NCBI GenBank assembly: GCA_963826715.1
Contig: CAWGYA010000008.1
Coordinates: 1 to 64,000, forward strand
Length of the DNA: 64,000 nucleotides
Origin: Candidatus Bathyarchaeota archaeon
Lineage (GTDB): Archaea > Thermoproteota > Bathyarchaeia > Bathyarchaeales > Bathycorpusculaceae
Reading direction: 5' to 3'
Both the position numbers and the translations under genes were made by a program. Within the stretch, counting starts at the first letter, position 1, and each line of letters starts with the position of its first letter. The notes below the pieces were generated by a model, which searched no databases, had not been told where the DNA came from, and saw nothing but the letters and a program-made list of their open reading frames with translations. Of this stretch, positions 13,065-13,974 are shown one piece after another.

Positions 13065-13264
13065 ACATAAACCTAAACAGTAAACATCTGCAGCCAAAAA
13101 GCGCACATACAACAGACCAAAACAGAATTGGGTTTCTCCCTAATCATTTAGCCTGCACCTAAGTCAACTACTCTCCTCCAAAAAACAAACTGATAATTAA
13201 AAAACAATTTATGAATTTGATTCATCATTTAATTTACAAAAAAAACCAAACAAATCAGTACTAA

Positions 13265-13400
13265 AAGAAAAAAATTAAGTAAGGCAAACCAAGCCATGCG
13301 TTACCCAAGAAGGGGTCAAAAGAGAGGTAGGGTGGGCAAATACCGCCTTCGTTGGTTAACAGCCTGATTGCCTAACTGTAGCTATACCTCGGCACTCCAA
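13265..13400 (-). ncRNA. Candidate structured small RNA (long imperfect hairpin)
   Basis: GC-richer patch in an AT-rich spacer. Arms 13278-13316 and 13342-13377 pair, and two mismatches are G-U pairs only on the - strand. TATA at 13422-13429 upstream and a T-run at 13268-13274 downstream. Confidence 0.55.
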
Positions 13401-13421
13401 ACTATCCATAAGTTGTTTATT

Positions 13422-13456
13422 GATATAAGGAAATGTGGTTTCAACATGATACAACA
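13422..13456 (-). promoter_or_regulatory. Palindromic motif plus TATA upstream of the candidate sRNA
   Basis: On the - strand: TGTTGTA-N9-AACCACA, TTTC, CTTATATC. Confidence 0.55.
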
Positions 13457-13635
13457 AAAAATAAAATATTAAAAACAAATAAATGCACAAAACAACTCAA
13501 CTTCTATAACAACACCAATTTAACCCCAAAATCTCATCAGTAATTCTACAACATCAAATTCACAGAGAGAATAGTTAAACTTCTTTGTAAATAAAAAAGT
13601 ATCAAAAAACAAACACTTTTAGCTTATTAAAAAAA

Positions 13636-13974
13636 TCAAAGAGATGTCTTAAACTCAAGGATCCGTCTTTCAACAATCCTTAAAATTTCCCTTCGTAACT
13701 TATCCCCAGAATCTTCCGTTTTTATGTAGCATAATCTGTTAGCCAACTCTTTGTCCTTTAAGACATCGCGGACCCATTTCTGAAAATCACCTCGAGGATA
13801 ATGAAAATCAATGACTGCCCCGTCAACTTGAAGTAGCTTCTCAGCAAAATCCTCCAAGCTAATTGCAGTTACATTTGTATCTTGACCTTCAGCCCTATGA
13901 AAATGAAAGCCCTTTTCCTTTGGAACCTTAGACAAAATATTAGCGATTTCATCCTTTGAAAGTACACGACTCAT
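13636..13974 (-). CDS. DUF5752 family protein
   Basis: Motifs VPKEKGFHF, AISLEDF, IDFHYPRGDFQKWV and DKELA, typical of DUF5752. Confidence 0.8.
   Translation of the reverse strand: MSRVLSKDEIANILSKVPKEKGFHFHRAEGQDTNVTAISLEDFAEKLLQVDGAVIDFHYPRGDFQKWVRDVLKDKELANRLCYIKTEDSGDKLRREILRIVERRILEFKTSL

Follow-up and report, generated by a model that had tools for sequence, protein, structure and literature searches.

The question raised by this 64,000-nucleotide (nt) stretch of Candidatus Bathyarchaeota archaeon DNA (the window) is whether the interval from 13265 to 13400, which had been predicted from its letters to hold an unannotated hairpin RNA of about 130 nt with its own promoter and terminator, is a gene, and what its product might do. 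Positions 13268 to 13437 of the minus strand are best explained as a complete gene for a structured RNA of about 130 to 135 nt, one of two copies in the genome holding the window (G000, 96% complete). The hairpin was recovered on the minus strand, with a TATA element upstream and seven T residues downstream, as the original prediction had described it. The prediction of a new structured small RNA (sRNA) gene with its own promoter and U-tract was also borne out, since homologs are conserved and covary and no Rfam family was matched. It is very probable that the locus belongs to a real, independently transcribed family of structured sRNAs.

A hairpin RNA gene and its covarying relatives

The hairpin of the window comprises about 36 pairs in three sections, which enclose a 25-nt apical loop (AUUUGCCCACCCUACCUCUCUUUUG, read from 13341 to 13317). 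Folded alone, it had a minimum free energy of -33.7 kcal/mol, compared with -24.6 +/- 3.0 kcal/mol for dinucleotide shuffles (z score -3.0), and one of 200 shuffles was as good. The proposed comparison with shuffled controls was thus favorable for the hairpin by itself, but not for the full 136-nt stretch from 13265 to 13400, where the z score was only -1.0 and 28 of 200 shuffles folded as well. On the plus strand of the locus the hairpin was absent on folding (z score +0.4), because several pairs of the minus-strand helix are G-U. Such strand-specific pairs had been foreseen, although their number had been given as two and the helix contains at least three. Folding energy alone is weak evidence here, and the more-than-chance status of the hairpin rests mainly on its homologs and their covariation.

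The family is too diverged for BLAST, which found the query alone in G000 and nothing in 40 related genomes. Relatives were instead identified with covariance models. A first model, built from the single window sequence and its fold, gave three initial matches and then matched 65 of 100 further same-genus genomes over its full length. A family model, applied at E <= 1e-4, matched 32 of 40 other same-genus genomes with one to 11 copies each, about 120 matches in all, and it recovered two of five genomes missed by the first model. The second copy in G000 (G000:C5:4019-4129, plus strand) scored 74.6 bits with the family model and is diverged; it has a near-identical promoter and a different loop, GUAACCCCUAACCCAUUUUU, and lies upstream of genes for hydrogenase or complex-I-like subunits.

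Among the first 32 sequences, 88.9% of the pair cells were standard pairs, compared with 79.3% after shuffling, and 23 of the 32 pairs changed on both sides. None of 500 shuffles reached any of five measures, and sliding the 3' partners by one to three columns reduced pairing to 28-45%. A second sequence set gave the same result. When 69 matches (67 distinct sequences) were pooled, 88.2% of the cells were paired versus 77.7% in shuffles, and 24 of the 32 pairs changed on both sides. The 67 distinct sequences held 266 double-change cells where 90 were expected, again reached by none of 500 shuffles, and slid registers paired in at most 49% of cells. These alignments were fitted to the covariance model and therefore favor the structure. 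However, when 31 sequences and their flanks were aligned with MAFFT, outside the model, and folded independently, the helix was recovered with 23 pairs, 11 of them compensatory. Two G-U pairs were retained in 58 and 62 of the 67 sequences, respectively, and they identify the minus strand as the functional one because they would be A-C on the other strand. The RNA structure is under selection and maintained by compensatory change, and the search for covarying homologs in Bathyarchaeia that had been suggested as a check was positive.

The same alignments bear on the alternative that the locus is a small-protein gene, in which a GGAAUG in the leader of many relatives could start a short open reading frame (ORF). 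Several relatives do have ORFs of 30-47 codons running through the hairpin. However, the longest ORFs in 31 members vary in start column, frame, and length (11-47 codons) and no reading frame is conserved among them, the corresponding ORF in the window copy has 17 codons, single-base insertions and deletions in the leader shift the frame, and the substitutions are of the kind that compensate base pairs. A single ORF overlaps the window hairpin (44 amino acids, 13356-13490, TTG start), and it has no Pfam match. The locus had been described as non-coding, which agrees with these results, and a small-protein gene is extremely unlikely.

The gene is bounded by elements that recur throughout the family. 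From 13437 on the minus strand, a transcription factor B recognition element (BRE) with its TATA box is followed by a spacer and leader of about 45 nt, the 100-nt hairpin, UAA, and the seven T residues. Among 57 unique members, 53 have a TATA-like hexamer at a distance of 35-75 nt (median 47) before the model start, embedded in the conserved BRE-like word aaCAACATTaTTTTATATt, and 51 have a run of at least four T residues after the stem. Archaeal transcription starts lie at a characteristic distance from the TATA box, and by this spacing transcription in the family should begin about 25 nt before the stem. The promoter position, conserved across the family, suggests a start near 13400 and hence an RNA of about 130-135 nt for the window copy, close to the length that had been estimated. 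Many members carry the purine-rich leader GGAAUGCAAGGGAUAGCCAAC. The TATA element had also been said to contain a motif shared by a regulon. Within the window this was not the case, as the 16-mer around the TATA box is unique at up to three mismatches, whereas very similar BRE/TATA words do stand upstream of other members of the RNA family.

Anatomy and range of the family

The lower half of the hairpin is its most conserved part, where GUUGGGCGG-UCUGGCUGCUAAC faces GUUAGC-(R-Y-R-N bulge)-GGCUUGA-(bulged Y)-CCUGCCUAAC. Within it, a GGCU/GGCU block closed by G-U pairs is nearly invariant, and the position beside this block holds a non-standard pair in 41 of 67 sequences. The upper stem is variable, and all 12 of its pairs change on both sides. 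The loop averages 22 nt and is composed of 40% U, 33% C, 17% A, and 10% G (55 loops), with a C-rich 5' half and a U-rich 3' half. This character is retained while the sequence itself differs between paralogs. For example, UGCCCAC was found in 33 of 55 loops and a run of at least four U residues in the 3' half in 37 of 55. Paralogs of one genome share the promoter and the lower helix and differ in the upper stem and loop. The positions of these parts in the window are collected in Table 1.

Table 1. Parts of the RNA gene and Pfam-identified neighboring genes in the window.
Feature	Position	Strand	Basis
Hairpin, RNA body, 100 nt, irregular	13278-13377	-	Fold, covariance-model matches, and covariation
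BRE/TATA promoter, CACATTTCCTTATATC	13421-13437 (TTATAT, 13428-13423)	-	Sequence; TATA-like element kept in the family
Predicted single-stranded 5' leader	13378-13400	-	Start placed by TATA spacing; purine-rich leader of the GGAAUGCAAGGGAUAGCCAAC type in relatives
Core helix, 5' strand, UCAGGCUGUUAAC; family consensus UCUGGCUGCUAAC	13355-13367	-	Alignments
Core helix, 3' strand, with 4-nt bulge, GUAAC-GCAU-GGCUUGG	13289-13304	-	Fold and alignments
Pyrimidine-rich apical loop, 25 nt, with UUGCCCACC and U-run	13317-13341	-	Sequence and fold
Run of seven T, likely archaeal oligo-U terminator	13268-13274	-	Sequence; run kept in the family
DUF5752 protein	13636-13974	-	Pfam
Small C2H2 zinc-finger protein, 94 amino acids	12722-13006	-	Pfam

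A further sequence element was observed past the hairpin. In 33 of 73 sequences, the 14 nt that follow the U-tract include GCCC or CCCC, compared with 4% of random 14-mers and none of the 73 in an upstream control. This box often reads UUUU-GCCC(A)YUAAC(C), which repeats the loop word UUGCCCA (for example in L052, L067, L236, and L237), and it is absent from the window copy. A pseudoknot between leader and loop was considered and rejected: shuffling of the loops gave a mean z score of -0.1 with two of 32 at p <= 0.05, and the comparison of cognate with non-cognate duplex energies gave p = 0.058 for 32 sequences and p = 0.48 for 56.

The family looks almost genus-restricted within reach of these models. 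Outside the genus, 146 genomes representing 78 further genera of the class gave no match with 24 candidates scored in each, and none of five genomes from sibling genera was matched when 150 candidates were scored. A broader model gave one weak match (36 bits) among 39 other genera of the taxonomic family, which retains the basal stem and a GUUAAC helix and lacks the central block. A divergent homolog was also sought upstream of the mevalonate kinase gene in two close sibling genera and rejected, as no model matched with filters off and no comparable hairpin was present.

Named genome records were also scanned for an exact pattern, which gave 118 stretches; 80 of these were fetched, and 21 matched the family model. 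Of these 21, 19 are in records of Candidatus Bathyarchaeota or Bathyarchaeia archaeon, in line with the lineage assumed in the original prediction, and two are in metagenome-assembled genomes (MAGs) titled as bacteria. The latter, L107 (86.5 bits) and L159 (95.1 bits), come from MAGs of Candidatus Acidoferrum sp. and Candidatus Limnocylindrales bacterium, and they probably lie on archaeal contigs that were binned wrongly. When metagenomes were scanned with the DUF5752 protein that neighbors the RNA in the window, seven loci were found, the best at 61% identity and none of them a close relative. At another locus (L220, G004:C4:1314-10934), two apparent RNA copies lie in a 9.6-kb stretch that matches its reverse complement at 93.5% identity. 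A foldback introduced by the assembly is the likely cause, the alternative being a palindrome of very large size, and these copies were excluded as evidence.

Genomic setting, loop targets, and proposed mechanism

In the window, the RNA lies in a same-strand neighborhood composed of an AsnC-type ligand-binding stand-alone protein, the DUF5752 protein, the RNA, the C2H2 protein, and a DUF389 membrane protein, with 264 nt between the RNA and the next ORF. Elsewhere its neighbors vary. The most frequent arrangement, found in eight Pfam-confirmed loci, has ribosomal protein S2, a Memo-like protein, the RNA, mevalonate kinase, and a UbiD-like protein in that order, and four further loci share this layout without a Pfam scan. 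The RNA also lies upstream of a Trp/Tyr-tRNA synthetase in three loci, and other neighbors include a UbiX-type flavoprotein (five loci), CheB/CheR (two loci), an ABC ATPase, histidyl-tRNA synthetase, a hydrogenase subunit, and TIR-domain proteins.

These arrangements raise the alternative that the RNA is a cis-acting 5' leader or attenuator of the downstream gene, such as mevalonate kinase or the Trp/Tyr-tRNA synthetase. In 21 of 29 loci (one ambiguous locus left out), the RNA and the next downstream ORF share a strand, and in the eight Pfam-confirmed mevalonate-kinase loci the RNA ends 50-100 nt before the GHMP-kinase gene. A precedent also exists in SscA of Thermococcus, an orphan archaeal hairpin RNA that is described as sitting in a 5' untranslated region (UTR) (PMC4247193). 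However, the downstream genes are unrelated to one another (kinase, aminoacyl-tRNA synthetase, CheB/CheR, ABC ATPase, zinc finger, and hydrogenase subunit), eight of the 29 loci have a downstream gene in the opposite orientation, almost all copies are followed by a U-tract, and the next ORF in the window begins only after the 264-nt gap. A separate transcription unit is favored over a leader because of the varied neighbors, the promoter, and the U-tract, and the cis-acting alternative appears improbable.

Synteny followed through the DUF5752 and DUF389 neighbors was poorly conserved. DUF5752 was in none of the ORFs scanned at 39 RNA-anchored loci and stood beside the RNA only where loci had been fetched through DUF5752. 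The DUF5752 proteins themselves form a paralog family with a match in 57 of 61 same-genus genomes searched, up to 12 per genome and four in G000; an RNA copy within about 2 kb of a DUF5752 paralog was seen in a few genomes (e.g., G045 and G058) and not generally. The protein encoded on the other side of the window RNA combines a proline-rich N-terminus with a single classical C2H2 zinc finger, a fold that is uncommon in archaea, and a similar small C2H2 ORF was found in G015 (L209) past an AsnC-type ligand-domain ORF, downstream of an RNA copy. The TIR-domain proteins that adjoin RNA copies are of the CAP12/Pycsar-effector type (L206 1852-2697 in G005 and L211 416-1249 in G015), and the copy in L211 is only 85 nt long and truncated. 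Additionally, in G015 the 5' end of a 16S rRNA gene (L210 1-107, G015:C21) lies about 1.4 kb from an RNA copy with divergent transcription.

The multiplicity of copies raises a different alternative, namely that the locus is a DNA-level repeat, either resembling a miniature inverted-repeat transposable element (MITE) or forming the terminal repeat of a mobile element, with the hairpin as a by-product of inverted repetition. In its favor, a genome may hold up to 11 copies, and in G001 some of them flank a polymerase-bearing module. Of the eleven copies in this genome, four belong to a sub-type that is marked by a promoter variant. Two of these four, inverted at G001:C4:13500-30000 (L222 2001-7949) and 88% identical over the promoter and the first 32 nt, bracket a 5.6-kb module that encodes a family-B DNA polymerase and a Rad51-like ATPase. 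The same module recurs on another contig (G001:C2, L221 1-9163), followed by an RNA copy, and there a 288-bp cassette that contains the complete RNA gene occurs twice, 5.6 kb apart, with 98% identity between the repeats. Virus protein families (PHROG) are matched by the polymerase and by two small ORFs. It is possible that the module is a mobile element of the polymerase-B type whose ends carry sRNA genes, a link observed in one genome.

Several observations count against a mere repeat. Most paralogs within G001 and G053 share 55-65% identity, apart from three sets of recent duplicates at 88-100%, and BLAST misses the second copy in G000. The compensatory substitutions, the strand-specific G-U pairs, and the lack of a fold on the plus strand point to an RNA, and nearly every copy has its promoter at a fixed distance. 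The original prediction had named dispersed MITE copies as a possible refutation; the BLAST search of G000, which found the query alone, and the divergence of the paralogs speak against this, with no systematic search for target-site duplications included. A DNA-level repeat as the whole explanation is quite improbable.

The loop was examined for targets. The original prediction had suggested that it could pair with ribosome-binding sites or, failing that, that the RNA might act as a protein decoy, which is a possible role. In the alternative that corresponds to the pairing the RNA is an antisense regulator whose CU-rich loop pairs with Shine-Dalgarno sequences of the GGAGG/GGUG type and blocks translation. 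The loop is exposed, G-poor, and C/U-rich, the window copy has ACCUCUCU, which is near the 16S rRNA 3' tail GAUCACCUCCU, and CACCU occurs in 15 of 55 loops. However, words of the 16S tail were not significantly enriched (17 of 55 loops, compared with 12.6 +/- 2.9 in shuffles, a count reached by 9% of them), and the second copy in G000 has no such word. The conserved loop 9-mer has 19 complements in the genome where 10.6 were expected, including the one in the RNA's own gene, and inspection of the others by eye, which was not systematic, revealed no obvious start-codon context. The suggested pairing with ribosome-binding sites was not substantiated by these counts, and an antisense regulator of this kind is unlikely.

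A second target was suggested by the stable RNAs. The consensus loop UUGCCCACCU is complementary, with one G-U pair, to AGGUGGGCAG in 23S rRNA (G000:C8:1121719-1121728), a site directly 5' of the P-loop sequence GGCUGGGGCGG, and the RNA could accordingly be an rRNA-directed guide or assembly chaperone. The duplex has 10 bp and an energy of -18.1 kcal/mol. However, the complementarity is marginal, as five of 100 composition-preserving shuffles were as good and 15 loop-target combinations had been tried, and, by our reading of the alignment, the loops of seven of 32 orthologs carry uncompensated mismatches to this invariant site. The loops of paralogs are unrelated to it, no features of H/ACA or C/D guides were found, and a genus-restricted RNA fits a universal site oddly. 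This alternative is highly unlikely.

In the preferred explanation, the RNA would form a modular RNA-protein particle that acts in trans. A protein that binds or stabilizes the RNA would use the constant irregular lower helix as its handle, and the exposed loop would be the working end, either as a seed for G-rich RNA (UUGCCCACC in the main type and other C-rich words in paralogs) or as the landing site of a protein that binds single strands, for example an Sm-like protein on the U-run. A modular trans-acting RNA is suggested because a constant irregular helix is combined with a covarying upper stem and with a G-poor loop that is conserved among orthologs and differs among paralogs. G000 has two genes with LSM domains, whose products are a possible partner for the U-run, and archaeal Sm proteins are described as binding U-rich RNA (PMC3710371, PMC5570065).

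Several results weigh against this explanation. The loop searches, comprising 9-mer complements, 16S-tail words, and stable-RNA pairing, yielded no significant target class: the 16S-tail words did not significantly exceed their shuffled frequency, the remaining 9-mer complements showed no start-codon context by eye, and the 23S duplex was of a quality that some shuffles also reach and is broken by some orthologous loops. In addition, eight of the 40 same-genus genomes had no match to the family model, including four that are 96-100% complete (G006, G008, G017, and G052), so that either the RNA is dispensable within the genus or the copies in these eight genomes are too diverged for the model. 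The GCCC box past the U-tract hints that the 3' end or the architecture is incompletely understood, with a second protein site as one possibility, and we infer the start, the 3' end, and the expression of the RNA from the DNA. With these points considered, the modular scaffold-plus-loop mechanism is held tentatively, as somewhat less than an even bet, and the explanation as a whole, which joins the sRNA family to this mechanism, stands at about even.

A more speculative extension would connect the modular particle to the polymerase-B module of G001. The family might provide the RNA component of an RNA-protein machine particular to this lineage, in which the protein-binding helix is constant and the C-rich loop can be exchanged. 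Both the chromosome and polymerase-B mobile elements would use this machine, and the elements would have RNA versions of their own at their inverted ends, for example for guiding, priming, or regulating replication of the element or for hijacking the host particle. We assign this extension a low probability.

Comparison with known RNA classes and systems

The RNA is outside every catalogued family tested. Rfam 15 gave no match at gathering score across the whole window, so that the proposed Infernal search left the RNA without a family. At E values up to 10, the region 13100-13650 gave one spurious 11-bit match to a mitochondrial rRNA model, and at E values up to 5 none of three matches at 10 other family loci fell on the RNA. 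It had been judged not to resemble tRNA, signal recognition particle (SRP) RNA, RNase P RNA, or a C/D guide, and each of these judgments held. ARAGORN, which may miss unusual introns, found no tRNA or tmRNA gene in the window and 37 tRNAs elsewhere in G000, and no T-arm was seen by eye. The 5S rRNA, SRP RNA, and RNase P RNA are each present elsewhere in G000 above cut-off, and the RNA shares only chance 9-13-mers with 16S, 23S, 5S, SRP, and RNase P RNA. Box C/D was rejected as well, as the C box RUGAUGA occurs in none of 73 unique sequences and CUGA anywhere in only 14. A scan for sigma-70 promoters and hairpin terminators was uninformative for an archaeon.

A new, well-supported archaeal sRNA family is described, nearly genus-restricted and with an unusual modular build. 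Bathyarchaeia are abundant and mostly uncultured archaea of soils, peat, and sediments, and to our knowledge almost nothing is known of their RNA biology; a literature search for non-coding RNA or sRNA of Bathyarchaeota or Bathyarchaeia found nothing relevant. With at least 67 distinct sequences, strong covariation, a conserved promoter, and up to 11 paralogs per genome, the family is among the better-supported candidate regulatory RNAs of this lineage and is ready for curation as a new RNA family. Its constant helix, together with the variable upper stem and loop, offers a clear handle for pull-down and target experiments, and the copies at the edges of the polymerase-B module suggest a possible link between a host sRNA and a mobile element.

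Among known systems, MITEs share the dispersed hairpin copies, up to 11 per genome and some at the edges of polymerase modules. In contrast to MITEs, the copies described here are old, with a divergence that leaves 55-65% identity, bear promoters, show covariation at the RNA level, and are specific to one strand. Archaeal box H/ACA RNAs resemble the family in being single hairpins of similar size, and the marginal 23S complementarity adds to the likeness. However, ACA at the stem end was found in only nine of 73 unique sequences and ANA in 12, and the would-be pseudouridylation pocket is a covarying helix, so that no such pocket is available. In addition, the 4-nt bulge (R-Y-R-N) is followed by GG rather than GA, and no kink-turn with tandem G-A pairs was seen.

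Y RNAs are about 100 nt long, with a long stem that includes a conserved, bulged, protein-binding section, a large pyrimidine-rich loop, and an oligo-U 3' end. The present RNA is similar in size, in its bulged conserved stem, in its pyrimidine-rich loop, and in its oligo-U end. It differs in that the pyrimidine-rich loop is terminal, no Rfam match to Y_RNA was found, and G000 has no TROVE/Ro60 gene (no match to PF05731, which a control search found in two reference genomes), and a Y RNA of a Ro ribonucleoprotein was rejected.

Staphylococcal Rsa RNAs (with UCCC motifs), Qrr, and LhrC are bacterial multi-copy sibling sRNAs with C-rich seed loops, proven targets, and chaperones. Similarly, the family consists of diverged paralogs on a common scaffold, with exposed C-rich and G-poor loops, their own promoters, and U-rich ends. 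Unlike in these bacterial sRNAs, the part that stays constant is not a terminator hairpin but a long irregular helix, and the targets are putative.

SscA/sRk33 of Thermococcales is described as an orphan RNA of about 100 nt that was found by comparative analysis and has a basal stem with many covariations and an unknown function (PMC3124441, PMC4247193). By this description, the two share an archaeal origin, a size of about 100 nt, a comparative route of discovery, and the combination of a covarying stem with a sequence-conserved part. They differ in lineage and in the placement of these parts, as in the Bathyarchaeia RNA the lower helix is constant and the upper stem covaries. The Bathyarchaeia family is also multi-copy and usually has its own promoter, whereas sscA is described as lying in the 5' UTR of the aEF1-alpha gene. 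By analogy, orphan structured archaeal sRNAs such as SscA/sRk33 appear to be the closest described kind, with the bacterial multi-copy siblings also close.

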